Positions 42,351-64,000 of a stretch of 64,000 nt of DNA are shown in pieces; position 1 is the stretch's first letter, and each line of letters begins with the position of its first letter. Position numbers and translations under genes: made by a program. This DNA comes from Mustelus asterias (lineage: Eukaryota). The notes beneath the pieces were generated by a model that saw nothing but the letters and a program-made list of their open reading frames with translations, had not been told where the DNA came from and searched no databases. Location: contig NC_135810.1 in NCBI RefSeq assembly GCF_964213995.1, positions 21,142,001 through 21,206,000 of the forward strand, read 5' to 3'.

Positions 42351-42909
42351 TGTTATGGCTGAGTGAGGTTGGACTCCTCGGTTGGTTCCAACAAAGGTTT
42401 TAAAATATCTTTTCCTATGTGAATACCTTTTCCAATCAAACTTTTTCATAAGGAGTAAATCAAATTACGTTTTCTTGAGTCAAATAAAGAACAAGTTTAT
42501 TAGTTACTAACCCAATGAAAAATAATAAAAGATGTGACAACACACACACAGGGCTGGGGTTTTCGTGCACACTACCACATATTTTACAGAGGTGGTCATT
42601 GGCAGGAGCTTCTGATCCCACCGCTGTTAATGGGATTTCCCATTGAATGCACCCTCACTGCTGGATAACCCATGGCAGGAGCACATCATCGGCAGGACTA
42701 GAATATCCCACTTGCATTAATGGACAGAAAATTCCATCCAGAGATCACAAAAGGAAGAAAAGTTAGAGTCCAACTAACAGTTAAATGAATACATGATTCA
42801 GTCCTTTGCTTGCTCTTGAGTCATACATAGATTGTTGAATGTTACAGGTGTTTGAAATTAGCTGATTCTCTTGAAAATCATGGAGTTGAATTTAATTCTA
42901 AGTAACGAG

Positions 42910-43195
42910 GGGTGGTAATGGTGGCACAGTGTTTAGCACTGCTGCCTCACAGTGCCAGGGACACAGGTTCAATTCTGGCCTCGGGTCACTGTCTGTTTGA
43001 AGTTTGCACTTTCTGCCCGTGTTTGCATGGCTTTCCTCTGGGTGCTCTGGTTTCCTCCCACAGTCCAAAGATGTGCGGGTTAGGTTGATTGGCCATGCTA
43101 AATTGACCCTTGTGTCTGTGGGGTTGTGGGAGTGGGGCCTAGGTGGGATTGTGGTCAGTACAGACTCCTTCTGTACTGTAGGAATTCCACGATTT
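42910..43195 (+). mobile_element. HE1-like V-SINE
   Basis: A/B boxes, V-domain, shortened tail. Confidence 0.85.
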
Positions 43196-43614
43196 TAACG
43201 ACTTTATGTTGAAAACAATTTCCTTCCTTTTAATTCCATGACCGGTCTCCCACAAATAGATGGGTTTCTCCTGAGGTTCATTCCCATGGACAGACACAAC
43301 CTCTTGGCTTGGATTTTTCTACTGTTGAGGCGGGGTTTTTCTTAATTTTAGAGAGAGAGAGAGGTTCTTCACTTGTTGTTACAGATTTTCCAGATGACTT
43401 TGATGAATTTTCTTTGTGTCAGCTTGGCAAAAATCAGTTCTTAAAACCTCCTGTCTGTATATTCCCAAAAGGAAATTCAATTAACAATTAACATGTATTG
43501 CAGTCATTGTTGTAACACAAGTAATCACATTTTGATCTTTCATCTCAGAAATCTTTGACTCGTTTCATGAAGGTAAAGACTAACAGGATTTAGGGTTATT
43601 TTGCCCTCCACAGA

Positions 43615-43958
43615 GGGGTAGCACGGTGGTACAGTGGTTAGCACTGCTGCCTCACAGTGCCAGGGATGCGGGTTCGATTCCGGACTAAGGTCACTGCCTG
43701 TGTGGCGTTTACATGTTCTCCCTGTGACTGTGTGGATTTCCTCTGGGTGCTCCAATGTCCTCCCACGGGTCGGGAGGATTGGCCTTGCTAAATTGCCTCT
43801 TAGTGTCCGAAGATGTGTAAGTTAAGGGGGTGGTAAATTAGTGGGGTTAAAGGAATATGACATGGTGTTGGGGGTGAGCCTGGATAACATGCTCTGTCAG
43901 AGAGTTGGTGCAGACTCGATGGGCCAAATGACCTCCTTCTGTCGGGATTCTATGATTT
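43615..43958 (+). mobile_element. HE1-like V-SINE
   Basis: A/B boxes, V-domain, tail. Confidence 0.8.
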
Positions 43959-43993
43959 CACAGAGGGTTCTGAGTACCTGTTGGATGTATAGA

Positions 43994-44333
43994 AGAATCA
44001 TAGTATCATTGAATCCCTATAGTGCTGAAGGAAGACATTCGGCCCATCAAGCCTGCACTGATAGCAATCTCATCCAGGTTCTATCCCCGTAATCCCGCGT
44101 ACTATCCTGACATATTTACCCTAGTTCCCCTGACACTATGGGGGCAATTTAACACAGCCTATCAACCTAACCTGCACATCTTTGGAATGTGGGAGGAAAC
44201 CGGAGCACCCGCAGGGAACCCACGCAGACACGGGGAGTACATGCAAACTCCACACAGACAGTCACCCAAGTCTGGAATTAAACCTGTGTTCCTGGTGCTG
44301 TGAGGCAGCAGTGCTAACCACTGTGCCATCGTG
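43994..44333 (-). mobile_element. HE1-like V-SINE
   Basis: Reverse complement of the SINE consensus. Confidence 0.85.
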
Positions 44334-44682
44334 CTGGTTAGCAGTTCCTGTTGTCTTTACTGTTGATTCAAATTCAGAACTTTGCATTTTCCTTGATTAG
44401 AGTCCTTGGTTGATGTCTGTTGGTTTCCTGTAAGATGTCTCCCTCTTCACATTTCCTTTCTTGGGGTGGGGTGAAGGGGCGGGGGAGGGGGGGCGGTGGT
44501 GGTGCGGGGAGTCGGCGGGGCGGTTGTGGGGGGGAGTTCTTGCTTGCTTTTCTCACCCTCACCTTAGAAGGTGACCTCAAATTTTAAAAGTTTGCTGTCT
44601 ATTTTTTAAAATGCCAAATTTTCAGTCATTTGAAATTTTTAAAAGATCACTTTTCGACAATAAAAAGGTATTTGTTTTGTGT

Positions 44683-45055
44683 GTGGTCCAAGGCTGTGAT
44701 AAGGTCTTGAACAGATTGGCTCTGATAGAACTCAAACTGCACAGCAGTGAGCAGATTATTGCTGGAAGTGCCACTTGATAGCACTGTTGACAACACTTTC
44801 GATCACTTTGTGAGGATGGAGAGTAGACTAATAGGGTGACATTTGGTCAGATTGGATTTGTCCTTTTTATGTACAGGATATATCTTGGCAATTTTCCACA
44901 TTCACAGGTAGATGTCTGTGTTCCAGCTGTACTGAAACAGCTTGGCTAAAGATGCAGCCAGTTCTGGAACGTAAATCTTCAGGACTACAGCTGGGATGTT
45001 CTTAGGGCTCATGGTCTTTGCAGTACACAGTGCCTTCAGTTGTAACTTGATATTA
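44683..45055 (-). mobile_element. Degraded non-LTR retrotransposon RT, proximal part
   Basis: Reverse strand DKSN....HPISLLSI..KVIESVVN...NNLLTAVQFEF...DLITAL (NYRPISLL / QFGFR region). Confidence 0.7.
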
Positions 45056-45529
45056 TGATTGTTGAATATTTTTTCATTTCATGTTGTTTGTCAGAAAATG
45101 CAAGAGTTAGATTGTTGTTCTTGAATCGTTGCAATGGCACAATCACATATACTTCTTGTCACCCCAAATCAGGATGACTGATCTGTTCCTTTGACGACAT
45201 CTTCAGAACGCTTATCTTTTCAGCTTCTAAACATCTGCTGTTTCATACTTTCCATCAAATTCATATGTGCTATGTTCCTGAAAGCAGTTGGTGGGGGATG
45301 GAACTGCAGCCAATCTTCACAGACTTTTATAAGCATTTATTTGCAGTTACACATTACACCCATGCACCTTTGAATCTTACCACCACAGTTTCAGTCTGTG
45401 TGTACTTACAAGGGCACTGTTCCTTAGGATGTTTGATTCTGTAAAAAGCACGATATAAAGTTGCTGTTTTGTTGTTGCTGACCAGGTCATTACACTTCTT
45501 TCTGTGCAACTATAAGTCTTAGGCTCAAG

Positions 45530-45808
45530 ATGGTAGCACAGTGGTTAGCATGCTGCTTCACCGTGCCAGGGATCCGGGTTCAATTCCCAGCTTGGGTCAC
45601 TGTCTGTGTGGAGTTTGCACGTTCTTCCCGTGTCTGTGAGGGTTTCCTCCGGGTGCTCCGGCTTCCTCCCATATTCTGAAAGACGTGCTGGTTAGGTGCA
45701 TTGACCCAAACAGGTGCCGGACTGTGGCGACTAGATGAATTTCACAGTAACTTCATTGCAGTGTTAATGTAAGCCTTACTTGTGACTAATAAATAAACTT
45801 TAACTTTA
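45530..45808 (+). mobile_element. V-SINE, alternative-tail variant
   Basis: Head, V-domain and ...GTGACTAATAAATAAACTTTAAC tail. Confidence 0.85.
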
Positions 45809-46286
45809 GCATTCAATTCCACAGCCAACTCCCTTCCCCGAGCATGGATTATATACTTGGGGGTTTACTGACCACTTAAATACTAAGTAATCCATCCTTT
45901 CTGCATGTTATCCCCATTAGCATTATGTACAAGTTTGATTGCTCAAGATTGCCCTTCTCTGTATCTAGCTGCCAACTTGACTGCCCTGACCAGCAGCCCC
46001 CATTTCACCCTGCTGGCCATTTACGGTCAATTTATGGCCTAATTCTACAGGAGTTTTCTAATCTCACAGACATATCAAAATCTTGTACAAACAGATGGCA
46101 TGTCTCTTTTTATATTGGTTTCCTGACCCTGCACTTTGAGATGGAGTCAGGATTGAGTTGCCATGGCAGTCTGCAGTCCACTCCACACTGAGAGTGCAAA
46201 ATCAGAATTTAGAAACCTCAGTGTTTATATCTCAGCGACTGCCCAGAGATTCCAGTTACAGTTTACAGTTAAAGTAAACTTATCTT

Positions 46287-46580
46287 CCACGGTGGCTCAG
46301 TGGTTAGCATTGTTGACTCAAAGCACCAGGGATCCGATTCCCAGCTTGGGTCACTGTCTGTGCGGAGTCTGCACATTCTTCTCGTGTCTGCCTGGTTTCC
46401 GCCGGGTGCTCCAGTTTCTTCCCACTGTCCGAAAGGCGTGCTGGTTAGGTGCATTGGCCATGATAAATTCCCCCTCCATGTACTCAAACAGGTGCCGGAG
46501 TGTGGCGACTAGGGGATTTTCGCAGCAACTTCATAACAGTGTTAATGTAATCCTATTTGTGACACTAATAAGTAAACTAA
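46287..46580 (+). mobile_element. V-SINE, alternative-tail variant
   Basis: Head, V-domain and alternative tail. Confidence 0.8.
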
Positions 46581-48061
46581 AGGAAAAACATTACAGCAAG
46601 GCTTTTGCTCCTGCCACAAAACATTTTTTGCAGGATCTATAGTCACAATTTAACTGCATCGTAATACTTTTCTAATATGACAATATTTTACTGTTGCTTT
46701 GACTTACACAGGATAATCCAACCAGTGTCTGAAAGTGAAAGCGGTGTGTTCTCACAGAGTAGTTCATTATTCCATGAGGCTGGGTAAGAGTTTGTGGATG
46801 AGGTGTTATTAATGGGGGGAGGGGGTCGTCTGGAGGAGAAACTTATTCTTAAATAAGTCTGGTGTGTAAGCATTCTGTAGGTATTATTTAACTGGACAGG
46901 TGACAGCTGATCTATGCAAGGTGCCCTGAGCAGAACTGCAGAATTCTCGTAAAATGATCCAACAGATCTGGGCAGGTCCGGCAAAATGTATGGCATACGT
47001 TATCCCTCAGCCAGGACAGTGGCTGCTGTGCTGAAGAGAACACTTCGTAAATATTAATTCTCTGTTCTGAATTACAGCAGAAAACAAAGAATACATTTAT
47101 TGTGACTTATAAACTGGAGGCACATGTATCTCTGCCCAATTTTAAGAGAGGATTATAATTATGGAGAACAGGTGCCCTGCGTGATTGCTAGTCACAGACT
47201 TTCCATAATCCTGTTGCAAATCCTTGGGATACATGTTCAACTTTACCACTCATTTTAACTGTTGCCTGAGCAGAAAACGGGGCAATATCTGCTGTGGAGG
47301 ATTACATACTTATTAAAAAACTTGCCTGACTTGCTCCCTATGAATGTGAATGGAAGGAACAGCGACACATTGCCTTATCAGTACATAATGCATTCTTTCC
47401 TTCCCTGCTCTGTTCAGGCAATGTTTATTATCCAGGCTGTAAAGTTGCAAATCCACCATCTTAAGGCGACTAATTCCGAGGTGAAAACATTCATAACAAG
47501 ACTGAATTTTGAAGCTCCTCTGTGGGCAAATTAGCTCGAGACTTTTTAACTTGACATGTTTGTTTGGCTCAGACGCTTCACGGATAGAAGTTTCTGTGGT
47601 CAGGTGATCCATGACCTCGAGGATTGTTCTGGAAATATAGATATTTTTTTCATGAGCCTGGATAAAAACTCAAAATGTGGAAGCCAAGTTTAAACCTAGC
47701 CATTCTCTGCAATTTGTAAACTGGAACAACAGTTTTCATACAGCCAGGCCTTGGACAATCAACTTCCCATTGAACCCAGGCAGGCCTGGAAGTGCCTGGC
47801 CAGTTGCTAATGGCCACATTGTGTCAGAACAAACTGTTGTTTGCAACTCCAGTGAACCTGCTTTGTTAGAAGAATGCTACACAGACTTGGTGGCATCCAG
47901 TTCAGTAGGAGGCCAGAGTCATAGCATGACAAGGACAGCATTTGACAGTTTGAAGTTCAAAACCATGTTCTGTGACCTCCAAATATAGAAAGTAGTCACC
48001 TCATTGGATTTTATCCAATGCTAGTATTGGACAAAGGCCACAGAATCTTCAAGAAGGGTAC

Positions 48062-48358
48062 TGAAGCGCGACAATCAAGCACGAGGTACAAGGCTTCAGC
48101 TATTGAAGGCTTTTATGAGCAAACAATGGAACTAACTAACACGAGTACACCAATTCAGACTGGAGGGGTCCCGCCTGAGCAGAGGGTCTTATACCTCTCC
48201 CCAGGAGGCGGGGCCCGACCGGGATGTGCCATAACAACATCTACCACAGGTAAACACCCTAACCCAACAACATTATACAACCCCCACAGTGGCAACACCC
48301 TAACCCAACAGTAACATAGGAATAACCCCACAGTGGTAACCAACGATGGTTCACCACA
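48062..48358 (-). repeat. 3' LTR
   Basis: Direct repeat of 52440-52736 with 4 substitutions by eye. Poly(A) signal reads CATAAA here. Confidence 0.95.
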
Positions 48359-48373
48359 TTCACCCCTCCTTTA
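48359..48373 (-). promoter_or_regulatory. Polypurine tract
   Basis: Minus strand AAAGGAGGGGTGAA immediately before the 3' LTR TG. Confidence 0.85.
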
Positions 48374-48422: not shown

Positions 48423-49927
48423 TCACAAGTCCAGACGGTCTGGAGGACCGCACCGTCGCTGTGATCTCCTCAACACCGGTTGCGACACCGGAGCAGGTGC
48501 TTGCGGTGGCGTTCTCTCCAAAACAGCGTCCGGCTGTCCCCTCGAGGACTCCCGGGCCGGTTGACCCTGGTGAGGCGATGGTGCAGGGGATCCTGGAACC
48601 TTCTGTGGTGGCGCCGATCTCCGAGTCTCAGGCAAGCTGTACATGGGAGTATAACTGTTAAGCACTGGTCCCGGTGCTGACCGCGCCACGTCTGGGGAAG
48701 AAATAAGTGATAGGGGATTCGTGACAGGGGGTGTGGGAGCGACAGGAGTTGCTACGTCCCCTGCGGGCGCCAGGTCTCGAATGGAGACAGTGTCCTCTCG
48801 CCCGTCAGGATATGCCACATAGGCATACTGAGGGTTGGCGTGGAGGAGTTGGACCGGTTCGACCAAGGGGTCGGACTTGCGGGCCCTCACATGTCGCCGC
48901 AGAAGGACGGGTCCTGGGTACGTCAACCAGGCTGGTAAGGAGATCTCCGAGGACGACTTCCGAGGGAATGAGAACATCCTCTCGTGGGGAGTAGCATTGG
49001 TTGCCGTACACAGGAGGGAGCGAATGGAATGAAGCGCATTTGGAAGGACCTCCTGCCAACGGGAGACTGGAAGGCTTTTTGACTTCAACGCCAGTAAGAC
49101 AGCCTTCCAGACTGTAGCATTCTCACGTTCCACCTGTCCGTTACCCCTAGGGTTGTAGCTCGTGGTTCTACTAGAGGCAATCCCGTATGAGAGCAGGAAT
49201 TGCCTCAAGTCATCGCTCATGAACGACGAGCCCCTGTCGCTATGTATGTAGCAGGGGTACCCGAACAGGGTAAAAAGATCACTGAATGCCTTAATCACTG
49301 TGGCAGTCGACGTGTCCGCACAGGGGACAACAAACGGGAACCGGGAGTATTCATCTATTATGTTGAGAAAATAGACATTCCGGTCCGTTGAGGGAAGGGG
49401 GCCCTTAAAATCCACACTCAGTCTCTCGAAGGGGCGAGTGGCCTTGACCAATTGTGCCCGGTCCGGTCGATAAAAGTGCGGTTTGCATTCCGCGCAAATC
49501 CGACAGCTTCTTGTTACTGACCTGACATCCTCCACCGAGTAGGGCAGGTTGCGGGCTTTTACGAAGTGGTAGAGTCGGGTGACTCCAGGATGGCACAGGT
49601 CATTGTGGAGGGCCTTCAAGCGGTCCTCCTGCATGATGGCGCATGTTCCGCGCGAGAGGGCATCCGAGGGCTCATTGAGCTTCCCTGGACGATACATAAT
49701 ATCGTAATTATAGGTGGAGAGCTCAATTCTCCACCGCAAGATCTTATCATTCTTGATCTTGCCCCTCTGCGTGTTACTGAACATAAACGCCACGGATCGT
49801 TGATCCGTGATCAGGGTGAACCGCTTCCCCGCCAGGTAATGGCGCCAGTGTCTGATGGCCTCCACAATGGCCTGAGCCTCCTTCTCCACCGCTGAGTGCC
49901 GAATTTTGGGGCCTTGAAGGGTGCGGG
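48423..49927 (-). CDS. Gypsy pol 3' part: RNase H C-terminal half and integrase
   Basis: EKEAQAIVEAIRHWRHYL and TDQRS (RH); H-x4-H...C-x2-C, VDFKG, HSDRG and VERENA (IN DDE). Separated from the upstream frame by one extra T at 49928-49933. Confidence 0.92.
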
Positions 49928-52398
49928 AAAAAATATGCGACGGGCCTGCCTGCCTGGTTTAGTGTGACGGCCAGGGCGAAATCAGATGCATCACTTTCCA
50001 CCTGAAAAGGGATGGATTCATCCACCGCGTGCATCGTGGCTTTTGCAATGTCGCTTTTCAAAGCCTCGAAGGCCAATTGGGCCTCCAGCGTGAGTGGGAA
50101 GGTCGTGGACTTGATGAGCGGACAGGCTTTGTCCGCGTAGTTGGGGACCCACTGCGCATAATACGAAAAGAAGCCGAGGCATCTCCTCAGTGCTTTTGTG
50201 CTAGCGGGCAAGGGAAGTTCAGTAAGGGGGCGCATACGGTCTGGATCAGGGCCGATGACCCCGTTTTCCACCACGTATCCAAGGATAGCTAACCTGCGCG
50301 TACGGAATACGCACTTCTCCCTGTTATAGGTCAGATTCAGGCGAGATGCAGTGCGCAGAAAGTTTTGGAGATTCGTGTCATGGTCCTGCTGGTCATGGCC
50401 GCAGATGGTGACGTTATCCAGGTACGGGAAGGTAGCCCGCAACCCATTCTGGTCCACCATTCGGTCCATAGCACGCTGGAAGACTGAGACCCCATTGGTG
50501 ACACCAAATGGAACCCTAAGAAACTGGTATAGACGACCATCCGCCTCAAAAGCCGTGTATTGTCGGTCCTCTGGGCGGATGGGGAGTTGATGGTAGGCGG
50601 ACTTAAGGTCTATGGTGGAGAACACCCGGTACTGCGCAATCTGATTGACCATATCAGATATGCGCGGGAGAGGATACGCATCCAGCTGCGTATAACGGTT
50701 AATGGTCTGACTGTAGTCGATGACCATCCGAGGTTTGTTCCCGCTTTTAACCACCACGACCTGCGCTCTCCACGGACTAGCACTGGCCTGTATGATCCCT
50801 TCTTTGAGGAGCCGCTGAACCTCAGATCTGATAAAGATCCGGTCTTCAGCGCTGTAACGCCTACTCTTAGTAGCGATGGGCTTGCAGCCTGGTACCAGAT
50901 TCTTAAATAAAGAAGGTGTGGTGATTTTTAGTGTGGAGAGATTGCACGCGGGGCGCTTTGGGCAATTTGGAGGCTGCAGCTGATTCCCTACTGCCAGTGA
51001 AGGGAGTGGCCCACCGTACTGTAGGATCACACTCTTCATGTAGACCATAAAGTTTAGTCCGAGGAGAATTGGTGCACAAAGGTGCAGTAACACAAGGAGC
51101 CTGTATCGCTCGTACATTGTGCCCTGCACCTCTAGGGTTACCATACAACGTCCTTGGATCGGTACAGACCGGGACCGTGATGCCATGGAAATTGTCTGTT
51201 TGGCAGGTAGAACCCGGAGTCCACACCTTTTTGCAGTGTCAGGGTGAATAAAACTCTCGGTGCTCCCGCTGTCAAACAGACAATAAACAGTACGACCATT
51301 TACCTTGATGTTCATCATGGAACTGTCAAGCCTGTGATGCTTTGTCTGGTCCAGAGAGATCGACGCCACCGTTGGCCCCTGGGCGTCACTGCATGCAGCC
51401 GAGGTTGATACTGAGGACCCCTGCTGGTCGCTCCTAGTTGTCGTTGACCATGATGGCCGCCCCCATGAATCGCACGTGGGTGAGGGCGCCAAGCGTAGCA
51501 ACTCCTGGTGGTCTTCCTCCTCCTCCGTCAGCCACAATGGCGTCGTCCTGGGTTCGCACGTGGTCGGACCTCGTGGGTACTGCGACGCCGAAGGAGATTG
51601 TCTCCGCTCTGGAGGGTCACAGGCTGCACTGCCATTCTTGGGCTTCGACCTGCAAACTTTAGCATAGTGCCCCTTTTTACCACACTGACTGCAGATCGCC
51701 GTTTTTGCAGGACACTGTTGCCGTGGATGCTTGGCTCCGCCGCAAAAATAGCATCGCTGGCCGCCTGGAGCTGCCGCCGTCGTCGGATCGATATGGGAGC
51801 GCGAGCCCGTGGGGCGAGGAGGGATTTGTGCTTGCTCCTGCCACGTTGTCTCCACGTGGTCTTCGGGGTACAGAGCCAAGCTTTTCGACGCTGCCTCCAG
51901 CATCTCAGCCATCTCCATCGCTTGGGTCAAGTTGAGGTTCCCTTTCTCTAATAGCTTAAGCCGGATGTACGAGGACCCTACCCCTGCTACGAACGCATCT
52001 CGGGCGAGGTCGTACATATATTGCTCTGCCGACACATCTTTGCAGTCGCAGCCCCTGGCAAGCTGCAAGAGCTCATTGGCGTAGTCCTCCATGGTTTCGC
52101 CCGACTGCCGACGTCGTGTAGCGAGGAGGTAACGAGCGTGGATCTCGTTGGGTGGTCTCGTGTATCGTTTCTTCAAGAGCTCGATGGCCCTCGGGTAAGT
52201 GGTGGCCGCACGAATCGCAAGATAGACCGTGTCGCTTACCCTCGCGTGGAGGACCTGGAGTTTGTCGTCGTCTGTAGTAACTGCTGCAGAGGCCGCCAGG
52301 TAGTCTTCGAAACACTTCCACCAGTGGTCGAAGGTGTTAGCGGCACCGACCGCATGTGGGTCCAGCGTCAGACACTCTGGTTTTAGTATTTGTTCCAT
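49928..52398 (-). CDS. Gypsy gag-pol 5' part: Gag (twin CCHC), aspartic protease, RT, start of RNase H
   Basis: Likely start MEQILKPE (ATG at 52398); CYFCGGAKHPRQQC and CSQCGKKGHYAKVC; LFDSGS; IDLKSAYHQ, VPFG, YLDN; ESDAS. Confidence 0.93.
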
Positions 52399-52439
52399 AC
52401 TCCCTTTACTGTCGAGAGTTTTATGTTTGCTAATAAAAT

Positions 52440-52736
52440 TGAAGCGCGACAATCAAGCACGAGGTACAAGGCTTCAGCTATTGAAGGCTTTTATTAGCAA
52501 ACAATGGAACTATCTAACACGAGTACACCAATTCAGACTGGAGGGGTCCCGCCTGAGCAGAGGGTCTTATACCTCTCCCCAGGAGGTGGGGCCCGACCGG
52601 GATGTGCCATAACAACATCTACCACAGGTAAACACCCTAACCCAACAACATTATACAACCACCACAGTGGCAACACCCTAACCCAACAGTAACATAGGAA
52701 TAACCCCACAGTGGTAACCAACGATGGTTCACCACA
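52440..52736 (-). repeat. 5' LTR with TATA (52566-52571), Inr-like CCAGTCT (52535-52541) and AATAAA
   Basis: TG...CA termini; TATAAG about 32 nt upstream of the Inr-like A; AATAAAA at 52489-52495 on minus. Confidence 0.93.
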
Positions 52737-53410
52737 GGTACGGAGAGGGAGATAAAAGGAGAATCCTGGAGCCCTCATTCTCTCTGCTCTTGCACCTTCT
52801 TCAACAATATCTCCAGAGCGAACCTTCGACTGGCAACTGGGCAGCACAGCATCTCCAGCACCTTGTACCTCATGGTAAGCATCATCAGACTGGCCAGACC
52901 CAGAAAACCACCCTGGTGAGATGCCCCAAAGACCAGAACCAGCTCTACACAAGAGGGGAAGACCAAATCAATGACTGCAGATCCTGAAACATCTGCCAAC
53001 CCTCAAAGACCGAGGAATAGCTTGGCTCAGCCTTATTGAATGGGTATTATCAGTCTGTTCAGACAAAGAGTTCAAAAATAGTGGTAGGAATGTGTGGATG
53101 GGATGTAGCAAATCCTCGGAAGTGCATGTCAGAAGTAGATTGCAAATGTAGTTTTGAGACTGTTTACTCAAGAGTCTTGCGAAGAGATAGATAGAATTTA
53201 ATTGAGTTTAGTTAAAGAGCAATAGTAGAGTCTGATAAATATTATTTTTCCTTGATAAAGTGTTCAATAAAGTTGTGTTGGACCTTCATCTCACTCTTGT
53301 TCCCTTTGTCTGTCTCAACATGTAACAGACCTGGGTTAAAAAGGTCTGGTTAAGGTTAGTCAGGGTACATTTACCAATCTTAACTTTACAACATTCCTTT
53401 GTGTCCTTGT

Positions 53411-53752
53411 GGGCGGCACAGTGCTGCCCCACAGTGTCAGGGACCAGATTCGATTCTGGCCTTGGGTGACTGCCTGTGTGGAGTTTGCATGTTCTCCCTG
53501 TGTCTGTGTGGTTTTCTTCTGGGTGGTTTGGTTTCCTCCCATGCTCCAAAGATGTGCAGGTTAGATGGATTGGCCATGCTAAATTTCCCCTTATTTTAAA
53601 AAGTTGTATAGGTTACATTGATTAGCCATGGCAAATGCACGGGGTTGTGGAGATAGGGCAGAGGGGAGGGCCTGCGTGGAATGCTCTTTCAGAGAGTCAG
53701 TGCAGACTTAATGGGCTGAATGGCCTCTTTCTGCACTGTAAGGATTCTATGG
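53411..53752 (+). mobile_element. HE1-like V-SINE
   Basis: Head with deletion, V-domain, tail. Confidence 0.8.
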
Positions 53753-61522: not shown

Positions 61523-64000
61523 TGTGGTGAACCATTGTTGGTTACCACCAGGTAGTGCTGAGCCATGGTCTGGCCAGTACTATGAGTCTGTAGATATGTT
61601 ACTGTTGGGGTTAGGGTTGGGCTGTTCTACCTGTTAATATAGTCCTTATGGTACACCCCAGTCGGCTCCGCCTCCTGGGAGAGGTATAAAGGTCACTGCT
61701 CTGCCTGGTGACCCTGGTGAAGTGTTTCCAAGATTACCTCGACGCCTCCACAGCGGTCACCGACGACGCCGACAGACTCCGGGTCCTCCACGCGAGGGTA
61801 AGCGACGCTGTATACCTAGCGATCCGTGGGGCCACCGACTACAAAGGGGCCCTCGAGCTTCTCAAGAAGCGATACAACAAACCGCCGAATGAGATGCATG
61901 CTCGACACCTTCTAGCCACTCGACAGCGGCAGCCCGGCGAAACGACGGAACAGTACGCGTGCGAGCTTCAACAGCTAGCCAGAGCCTGCAACTGCAAGTC
62001 AGTGTCGGCAGACCAGTACATGAACGACCTAGCTCGAGATGCATTCGTGGCGGGAATTGGCTCGTCGTACATCTGCCTTCGGCTGTTGGAGCAAGGTAAC
62101 CTCGATCTCACTAAATCCATAGAGTTAGCTGACGCTCTAGAAACGGTCTCCAAAGGTCTGGCGATGTACCCCGACGACCACGTGGAGACAGTGTGGCAGG
62201 GGCAGTCGCAGACTCCACTTCATTCAGCGGGACCGAAAAACTGCGCGATTGCGTTCCCAGCCTCGGACCTGATGACGGCAGCAGCTCCAGGTGGCCCGCG
62301 GTGTTACTTCTGTGGCGGGGTGAAACACCCTCGGCAGCGATGTCCAGCTAAAGCGGTGTTGTGCTCCGCCTGCGGCAAGAAGGGGCACTATTCCAAGGTA
62401 TGCCGCTCCAAACTTCCATCCAAGAACAGCAGTGCGGCGTGTGACTCCCCGGAGCCGGCCTCCTTGTCTTCTGCATCTTCAAGGTCTTCTACCACGTGCG
62501 ATTCCAGGACGTCGCCATTCCGAACGAGGGAGTCGCAAGACACGTGCGACCTGCAGGGGCCGCAGGTTTTGGTGCCATCGTCCACGTGCGGCCTATGGGG
62601 GCAGCCATTTTGGTCGGCACCGACCGCGAATGACCAGCAGGGGTCGTCATCAACCATCTCAGCTGCCTGCAGTTGCGCCCACGAACCAACGGTGGCATCG
62701 ATCATCCTGGACCAAGCCAAGCCTCACAGGCTCGACAAGTCCATGATGGACATACAGGTAAACAAACGCCCGATTTATTGTTTGTTTGACAGCGGGAGCA
62801 CGGAGAGCTTCATTCACCCAGACACCGTGAAGCGGTGTGGTCTCCAGATTCGGACTGTCAAGCAGACAATTTTGATGGCGTCAAGGTCCCAGTCTGTCAC
62901 CATGCTAGGGAGTTGCGTGGTCAATCTGACGGTGCAGGGCACGGTTTACGAGAACTTCAAGCTCCTTGTGTTACCGCACCTTTGCGCGCCAATACTCCTA
63001 GGACTAGATTTTATGGTCCACCTGAAGAGTGTAACCCTGCAGTACGATGGGCCACTCCCTCCGCTTTCAGTGGGAGATCCGCAGCCTCTAAATTGCCCAA
63101 CGCGCTCCACATGTAGTCTCTCAACGCTTAGGATTACCACACCCTCCCTATTCCAGAATCTCGTGCCAGGCTGCAAGCCCATCGCAACAAAGAGCAGGCG
63201 TTACAGCGCTGAGGATCGGATCTTCAGTTGATCTGAAGTTCAGCGGCTCCTCAAGGAAGGGATCATCCAACGTAGCGCTAGTCCTTGGAGAGCGCAAGTC
63301 GTGGTGGTTAAGAATGGGAACAAACCCCGGATGGTCATAGACTATAGTCAGACCATTAACAGATACACGCAGCTGAATGCGTATCCCCTCCCGCGCAAAT
63401 CTGGCATGGTCAATCAGATTGCGCAGTACTGGGTGTTCTCCACCATCGACTTAAAATCTGCTTACCACCAGCTCCCCATTCACCCAGAGGACCGACAATA
63501 CACAGCCTTTGAGGCGGATGGTCGCCTGTACCATTTTTTAAGGGTTCCTTTTGGTGTCACGAATGGGGTCTCGTTCTTCCAGCGTGCTATGGACCGAATG
63601 GTGGACCAGAACGGACTGCGGGCTACCTTCCCGTACCTGGATAACGTCACCATCTGCGGCCATGACCAGCAGGACCACGATGCCAACCTTCTTAGATTCT
63701 TACGCACTGCATCTCGCCTGAATCTGACCGACAACAGGGAGAAGTGTGTATTTCGCACGCGGCGCCTAGCTATCCTCGGATACGTGGTGGAAAACGGGGT
63801 CCTTGGCCCTGATCCAGACCGTATGCGTCCTCTCCTCGAACTTCCCCTGCCCACTAGCGTTAAAGCACTGAGAAGATGCTTAGGCTTCTTCTCTTACTAC
63901 GCACAGTGGGTTCCCAATTACGCGGACAAAGCCCGTCCGCTCATCAAGTCTACCTCTTTTCCCCTAGCACCAGAGGCTCGCTTAGCCTTTGCAAGAATAA
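61523..64000 (+). mobile_element. Second Ty3/Gypsy copy of the same clade, with internal 5' deletion; runs off the window
   Basis: LTR start TGTGGTGAACCATTGTTGGTTACCAC nearly identical to the start of the first element's LTR. U3 and TATA are fused directly to gag near 61715. Confidence 0.93.
61717..64000 (+). pseudogene. gag-pol (Gag, PR, RT) lacking its start, with an in-frame TGA at 63229-63231
   Basis: Homologous to the 892-aa ORF (twin CCHC, LFDSGS). After TGA (Arg in the first copy) the frame continues through IDLKSAYHQ, VPFG and YLDN to the window end. Confidence 0.9.

Follow-up and report, generated by a model that had tools for sequence, protein, structure and literature searches.

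In LTR elements, minus-strand synthesis necessarily starts beside the LTR end; mature tRNAs all end in CCA, and a full tRNA primer needs a primer-binding site (PBS) beginning with TGG. In the window analyzed here, the whole 64,000-nt stretch of the Mustelus asterias genome under study (NC_135810.1, positions 21,142,001 to 21,206,000), a Gypsy retrotransposon carries at this position a sequence that is not tRNA-like and that exactly complements part of its own LTR. This raises the question of what primes reverse transcription in the element and how such priming relates to that of the Tf1/sushi chromoviruses. To our knowledge, experimental proof of self-priming exists only for fission-yeast Tf1, and the trait has been treated as a mark of the Tf1/sushi group. 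The original prediction for this locus proposed self-priming in a mode distinct from that of Tf1.

Structure of the Element and Its Primer-Binding Site

The element occupies the minus strand from 52736 to 48062 (4,675 bp), and all of its features given below lie on that strand. It is bounded by two 297-nt LTRs of the TG...CA type (5' LTR, 52440..52736; 3' LTR, 48062..48358), which start with TGTGG, end with TCA and show four differences from each other. A 5-bp target-site duplication (TSD), GTACC, is found on both flanks (upstream copy, 52737..52741; downstream copy, 48057..48061), and the polypurine tract AAAGGAGGGGTGAA (48359..48372), which is conserved in relatives, precedes the 3' LTR. The gag-pol gene (48423..52398) encodes Gag with a CCHC motif, protease, RT, RNase H and integrase, with no chromodomain. 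The domain order Gag-PR-RT-RH-IN, together with the TG...CA LTRs, the TSD and the polypurine tract, is that of Ty3/Gypsy elements, and Ty3 RT is the nearest solved structure by sequence.

Two features of the window copy were missed in the original prediction: a single frameshift near 49,930-49,952 that breaks the gag-pol frame, and a 3' LTR hexamer that reads CATAAA, a private change, with AATAAA retained in other copies. Since the best 40 DNA matches to the window element are all at least 98% identical and many copies of its family have an uninterrupted 1,342-codon frame, the family is young and abundant. A SINE-like repeat is present in several diverged copies on the flanks of the element (window 42900-46560 and 53400-53600). 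Elsewhere, three copies at a 4,113-nt spacing form a tandem array (L068-L070, G000:C9:23.109-23.118 Mb).

The 5' LTR is followed by a single unpaired A (52439) and then by the PBS, TTTTATTAGCAAACA (52424..52438). The PBS is the exact complement of LTR positions 234-248 (52489..52503), a segment referred to here as the partner and regarded as the putative 3' segment of a self-primer, at +37..+51 of the predicted RNA. The partner contains AATAAA (52495-52490), the only such hexamer in the 5' LTR. The expected number of exact 15-nt matches by chance is 1.7e-7, and the longest anchored complementary run in 20,000 shuffled LTRs was 11 nt.

A tRNA-primed Gypsy element was considered as the conventional candidate and rejected. 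TGG is absent at the PBS of the window element and was found after the LTR in none of the 16 full-length elements aligned without a parser filter, and the PBS starts with TTT in 197/197 parsed copies, a count in which the parser itself fixes three positions. When 19 PBS variants were compared with 34 tRNA sequences of the same genome, representing 10 isoacceptor types only, the longest match was 6 nt, and an Rfam search of the PBS region returned no match. Both the exact 15-nt complementarity and the non-tRNA character of the PBS, as originally described, were thereby reproduced.

Compensatory Evolution of the PBS and the LTR

Searches of the same genome yielded 238 loci with gag, 213 of them distinct, of which 197 were parsed and 16 dropped, the LTR end or the anchor not being found. 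Thirty loci came from a DNA query holding both arms and are biased toward the perfect pair, while most of the others came from gag queries. The 197 copies form 10 families that are mutually 64-80% identical where alignable. Pairing is perfect over 13 nt in 155/197 copies, and 19 different PBS 13-mers occur, each matched by its own LTR. The paired arm begins one base past the LTR in every family, and the proportion of paired copies falls from 97% at position 13 to 74% at position 15 and 17% at position 16.

Compensatory covariation among relatives was the check put forward with the original prediction. Because positions 1-3 are set by the parser, the test was confined to positions 5-13, where 1,723 of 1,773 cells are paired across the 197 copies and 10 families, against 1,371±12 when LTR arms were shuffled across families and 1,666±5 when they were shuffled within families. 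None of 5,000 shuffles under either scheme reached 1,723, a comparison in which the copies are related and the events hence not independent. Nine of the 10 families contain mirrored changes, among them transversions (T-A/G-C, C-G/A-T and G-C/C-G swaps); mirrored C/T-G/A changes at CpG sites (families 1, 3 and 5, position 9) were discounted as weak evidence, given that independent decay is possible there. The recurrent pairs of the primer helix comprise 124 Watson-Crick and only 4 G-U pairs. AATAAA or ATTAAA lies inside the partner in 10/10 families of the genome; in family 1 (e.g., L154 and L156) the hexamer is altered to ATTAAA, with the change mirrored in the PBS.

Across the genome, 301 copies carry the pair found in the window, and 112 differ at position 9 of the LTR arm, the mirrored PBS base being present in 96 of the 100 listed. 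These 96 mirrored-transversion copies represent one subfamily and were counted as one event; a single copy (L255), taken at first for a lone mirrored mutation, was dismissed as a member of this subfamily of about 100. Only two copies genome-wide combine the LTR arm of the window with a different PBS base. Among 20 further full-length stretches, 13 have a mismatching 5' arm together with a readable 3' LTR, and in 12 of these 13 the change is restricted to the 5' LTR, so that the mismatches in these 12 copies most likely post-date insertion. Judged from these alignments, the PBS-LTR pairing evolves by compensation, and the covariation is strong.

Direct signs that the PBS is recopied from the primer were looked for in chimeras of two subfamilies (17 A, 16 B and 8 test copies; 22 diagnostic columns). 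In two copies, L307 and L325, the PBS alone carries the base of the other subfamily (reciprocal transversions), so that U5 and PBS types differ, a combination not expected under strict cis priming. Swaps at single sites are frequent, however, the 17 A copies having B alleles at 12 diagnostic cells, and the two PBS swaps accordingly weigh little against strict cis priming; they are a possible trace of trans priming or of short conversion. Seven further copies (L304, L305, L306, L308, L309, L324 and L327) have alleles of the opposite subfamily in one LTR despite an intact TSD (one mismatch in L306), which suggests that LTR gene conversion is frequent in the window family.

Predicted Transcription Start and Leader Folding

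The position of the partner within the RNA depends on the predicted promoter. The 5' LTR has a predicted TATA box, TATAAG (52566..52571), with TATAA present in 177/197 related copies, and an Inr-like CCAGTCT (52535..52541) whose A at 52539, 32 nt after the T of TATA, is the predicted +1. An Inr consensus akin to the one applied is quoted in a section of PMC3601003. An Inr-like YYA+1 site lies 31-34 nt past TATAA in 160 of the 177 copies, in eight families and with differing intervening sequence. Counted from this predicted +1, the end of the partner falls at +50 to +55 in six families and at +64 and +74 in two. A TATAWA motif 20-40 nt upstream of the partner was found in 0/197 copies. Based on the TATA-Inr spacing conserved in eight families and the lack of TATAWA at that distance, the partner is predicted, in accord with the original prediction, to be internal to the RNA (+37 to +51) rather than at its 5' end. 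Four sequence runs consisting of contigs, with loose ends that resemble library adaptors, yielded neither start nor end sites, a blank that has no bearing on expression.

A second predicted helix adjoins the first. The LTR arm GTTCCAT (52504..52510; +30..+36) can pair with the Gag start-codon region, ATGGAAC (52392..52398). A conserved six-mer, G(C/T)TC(C/T)(A/G), adjoins the partner on its upstream side and complements the bases that follow the A of the Gag AUG. This AUG helix can form in 176/197 copies, compared with 18, 1 and 24 in three control windows; if it forms, sequence upstream of the partner is needed in the RNA, in agreement with an internal partner. In folding predictions, the primer helix has a mean ensemble probability of 0.80-0.99 per family and the AUG helix one of 0.73-0.98, and the leader of the window element folds as a nested hairpin (z=-2.6). 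A stem just inside the primer helix has an ensemble probability of 0.05-0.06 in the family of the window and of 0.43-0.99 in five others.

The AUG helix is less secure than the primer helix, since its AUG arm is under codon constraint. A non-pairing combination of its arms occurs in two copies among the recurrent types, G-U pairs are tolerated, and no two-sided change free of codon constraint was seen. The six-pair test failed in 5/5 copies of one family and in 4/7 of another.

The window also holds a second element on the plus strand (61524-64000), which belongs to a sister family with 76% protein identity. It has lost about 240 nt, from just past the TATA region to early gag, in a deletion that takes out the Inr, partner, PBS and start codon and whose junction brings together two short CTGGT-like stretches. 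Intact copies of this sister family have the compensatory pair.

Distant Relatives and Clade Placement

Beyond the shark genome, no DNA relatives were confirmed among the viral contigs or genome contigs searched. Metagenome contigs provided 13 loci, of which 3 rearranged upstream, 1 cut off and 3 duplicates were set aside, leaving 6 assessable relatives with a gag identity of about 28-40%. Five of the six pair over 10-18 nt, with one base separating the paired arm from a CA and in some cases with mismatches, whereas L081, with only a 7-nt match, was counted as a non-pairing relative. LTR ends are confirmed by a second repeat only in L087 and L091. In L087 and L088 the second copy pairs perfectly over 17 nt with AATAAA inside; both loci contain a second LTR-PBS-gag start in tandem. 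In two of the five pairing relatives, L090 and L093, the partner is devoid of a canonical hexamer. On the evidence of these two sequences, the pairing is more widespread than its overlap with the poly(A) signal, and a role in polyadenylation does not extend to the whole clade. In L091 (~930-975), an intron-like stretch of 37 nt (GT...AG) lies directly upstream of the partner, and acceptor-like pyrimidine tracts ending in CAG occupy the same place in L090 and L093; splicing in these three relatives could alter the cap-to-primer distance.

Among named proteins, the nearest are those of rays and sharks, followed at a greater distance by proteins from nematodes, a crustacean and a cnidarian. One named host-gene model (P0007) includes a stretch 85% identical to part of the window Gag-Pol and is possibly an exonised or mis-annotated Gag-Pol copy.

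As first noted from the sequence, the element has no recognizable chromodomain: neither this domain nor SH3_Tf2-1 gave a match at E<=0.1 in the integrase tail of the window element or in P0001 and P0025, while the control P0055 matched both. In a quick RT tree of 73 rows, a 63-row clade (SH-aLRT 99) is separate from four chromoviral stand-ins (98), which were picked by Pfam domains or name, the tree containing neither Tf1 nor sushi itself and leaving the deep fork unsettled. Membership of the Tf1/sushi group was rejected on these two grounds. A non-chromoviral placement of the window lineage is thus supported by domain content and RT sequence, and a sister relation to chromoviruses is possible in the quick tree.

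A tentative candidate identity for the clade is Cigr-1 or Saci2-like. Cigr-1 has LTRs of about 245 bp and an ORF of about 1,200 codons, resembling the invertebrate members of the window clade, and the likeness to Cigr-1 and to Saci2/lennie-like elements lies in their being compact single-ORF animal Gypsy elements. A Cigr-1 clade is named in part of PMC6238403. For Saci2-like families, a section of PMC12471100 gives highly variable PBSs, assigned tRNA primers and 4-bp TSDs; the assigned tRNA primers and the TSD length differ from the window element, whose TSD is 5 bp.

Candidate Priming Mechanism and Alternatives

Considering that the sequence at the priming position tracks the element's own LTR through 19 variants, self-priming with an element-derived primer is very likely. 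The proposal that the element supplies its own primer has thus gained from the strong compensatory covariation, the mirrored subfamily and the pairing in 5/6 metagenome relatives. The best mechanism, to which a probability of about 60% is assigned, is that the internal 5' R segment (+37 to +51) folds onto the PBS and is cut in cis just 3' of AAUAAAA.

Under this mechanism, transcription would start at the Inr (52539), and once the PBS has emerged (+102 to +116), the RNA would fold into a long nested hairpin in which the 15-bp primer helix stacks on the helix between +30..+36 and the Gag AUG. Cleavage past the primer helix, for which the RNase H of the element is the candidate nuclease by analogy with Tf1, would expose a 3' OH separated from the LTR end by one base. 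Minus-strand strong-stop DNA would then copy about 50 nt of template and jump to the RNA 3' end, aided by the short overlap that lies between AAUAAA and the poly(A) site. The primer would subsequently be recopied into the PBS during plus-strand strong-stop synthesis, which would account for a Watson-Crick-perfect helix. The nested fold would also mask the poly(A) signal of the 5' LTR together with the start codon, and the 3' LTR, with no PBS behind it, would stay open.

The unpaired 5' part of the primer could be removed by RNase H on meeting the new minus strand, or be excluded by a plus-strand stop at the AUG helix, which starts 16-18 nt from the primer 3' end in 8/9 families listed. An uncut 51-nt primer would need such a stop or trimming in plus-strand synthesis. 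PBS complementarity running into upstream R gave 0 genomic matches for the family of the window, and no genomic copies with a terminal poly(A) run past the hexamer were found; both blanks are uninformative.

Three other explanations were weighed against cis cutting of the internal segment. The primer might come from the RNA 3' end, either from the 3' R copy or from a short 5' or solo-LTR transcript, and be trimmed to AAUAAAA before annealing in cis or trans; once RNase H had stripped off the part of R paired to nascent DNA, a primer of about 15 nt would remain. With identical LTRs, covariation cannot separate the 5' from the 3' copy. The primer end adjoins the poly(A) signal, about 20 nt from the predicted 3' end, and a 15-nt boundary would arise naturally. 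This source is nevertheless unlikely: the adjacent 5' copy is itself predicted to lie on the PBS with a probability of 0.80-0.99, and precise removal of the poly(A) tail plus about 20 nt would be required. The two PBS-only swaps are compatible with trans priming but fall within a background of single-site swaps, with LTR gene conversion visible in the same family. Alternatively, the RNA might begin at or just before the partner (~52503), as in the geometry of Tf1, and the primer be its first 13-17 nt. The sharp stop of pairing at 13-16 nt does resemble the short primer of Tf1, and alternative start sites are described for Tf2 in part of PMC5341516, the start being a predicted one in the present element. 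Such a start is nonetheless improbable, given TATA and Inr motifs conserved 36-60 nt farther upstream in eight families, TATAWA at a fitting distance from the partner in 0/197 copies, and an AUG-pairing six-mer upstream of the partner in 176/197 copies that would be needed in the RNA.

The helix might also be purely regulatory and hide the 5' AAUAAA, with a tRNA half, a host RNA or a protein as the actual primer. Its appeal lies in the AATAAA or ATTAAA inside the partner in every family of the genome, in the hairpin masking of the 5' poly(A) signal established for HIV-1 (section of PMC3432602), and in a tRNA screen that covered 34 sequences of 10 isoacceptor types. A regulatory helix, however, would not explain why the paired arm occupies the exact primer position, one base past the LTR, in every family, and 19 PBS sequences would demand 19 host RNAs identical to the element's own LTR segment, where the best match to the 34 tRNAs is 6 nt and the Rfam search was blank. 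The dominance of Watson-Crick over G-U pairs (124 vs 4) is unlike the AUG helix, and L090 and L093 pair in spite of having no hexamer. Taken with these points, a purely regulatory role is highly improbable.

Comparison with Known Systems

Tf1 offers the closest comparison for cis cutting of an internal R segment. Tf1 RNA anneals to its PBS through its first 11 nt, which RNase H then cleaves off (part of PMC7175516), and both additional duplexes described in a portion of PMC10085805 involve LTR sequence that lies downstream of the primer. The window family resembles Tf1 in its Ty3/Gypsy domain order, in the absence of a tRNA PBS, in a PBS that follows the 5' LTR directly and is complementary to the element's own LTR, and in additional helices flanking the primer helix. 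It differs in several respects. The primer of Tf1 is the first 11 nt of the RNA, whereas that of the window family would comprise 13-17 nt and is predicted to lie at least 36 nt inside the RNA; Tf1 forms a "pretzel" of three duplexes, whereas the window family is predicted to form a nested hairpin in which the helix 3' of the PBS uses upstream LTR sequence and covers the AUG. The stem inside the primer helix is needed by Tf1 but predicted to be weak in the family of the window and strong in some others, and a poly(A) hexamer falls within the putative primer in the window family. In contrast to Tf1/sushi, the window clade has neither a chromodomain nor SH3_Tf2-1 and forms a separate RT clade in the quick tree. 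The observed complementarity is strongly supported by sequence, and the putative mode of the element is best regarded as a variant of Tf1-type self-priming outside the Tf1/sushi group. The distinct mode envisaged in the original prediction consequently stands as regards a predicted internal primer, but not as a wholly separate mechanism.

Self-priming has also been predicted for the plant chromovirus Tcn1 and for TAR elements of Ty1/copia (Houba and Osr-1), the criterion being that the 5' LTR is complementary over at least 10 bp to sequence located 0-5 bp downstream of it (section of PMC6317226). These elements resemble the window family in the complementarity criterion and in showing the trait also outside Tf1/sushi; they differ in host and lineage, and the relevant section of PMC6317226 makes no mention of an internal primer, a poly(A) signal or an AUG helix. 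The polyA hairpin of HIV-1, which masks the 5' AAUAAA (section of PMC3432602), is comparable to the window family in placing a helix over this signal, masking being a prediction for the latter. The HIV-1 hairpin, however, is local to R/U5, forms at both ends and belongs to a tRNA-primed virus, whereas the masking strand in the window family would be the PBS, at the 5' end only.

A search confined to the open-access literature found no description of self-priming in the window clade; subscription journals or Repbase/GyDB entries may contain one. The features that the present sequence analysis addressed directly are the within-family mirroring, the conserved TATA-Inr spacing, which would make the primer internal to the RNA, and the AUG helix.

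Implications

A broader proposal can be advanced tentatively, at somewhat less than even odds. A large animal-wide Gypsy clade, with named relatives from cnidarians, nematodes, crustaceans and cartilaginous fish, may have evolved an internal-primer form of self-priming independently of Tf1/sushi. A single hairpin would supply the primer, hide the poly(A) signal and cover the Gag AUG, acting as a switch between translation and reverse transcription, and its arms would be recopied in each cycle and evolve in lockstep.

Self-priming has been proposed as the ancestral mode of LTR elements (part of PMC3601003). If the present interpretation is true, the self-complementary PBS of a separate animal clade that is abundant and was active recently would constitute another independent origin of self-priming, which bears on that proposal. 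An internal primer would also pose a question absent in Tf1, namely what sets the 5' boundary of the primer. Self-priming elements would evade control exerted via tRNA supply or tRNA fragments, and self-primers may be concealed among animal Gypsy families annotated as having "no PBS" or a "variable PBS".
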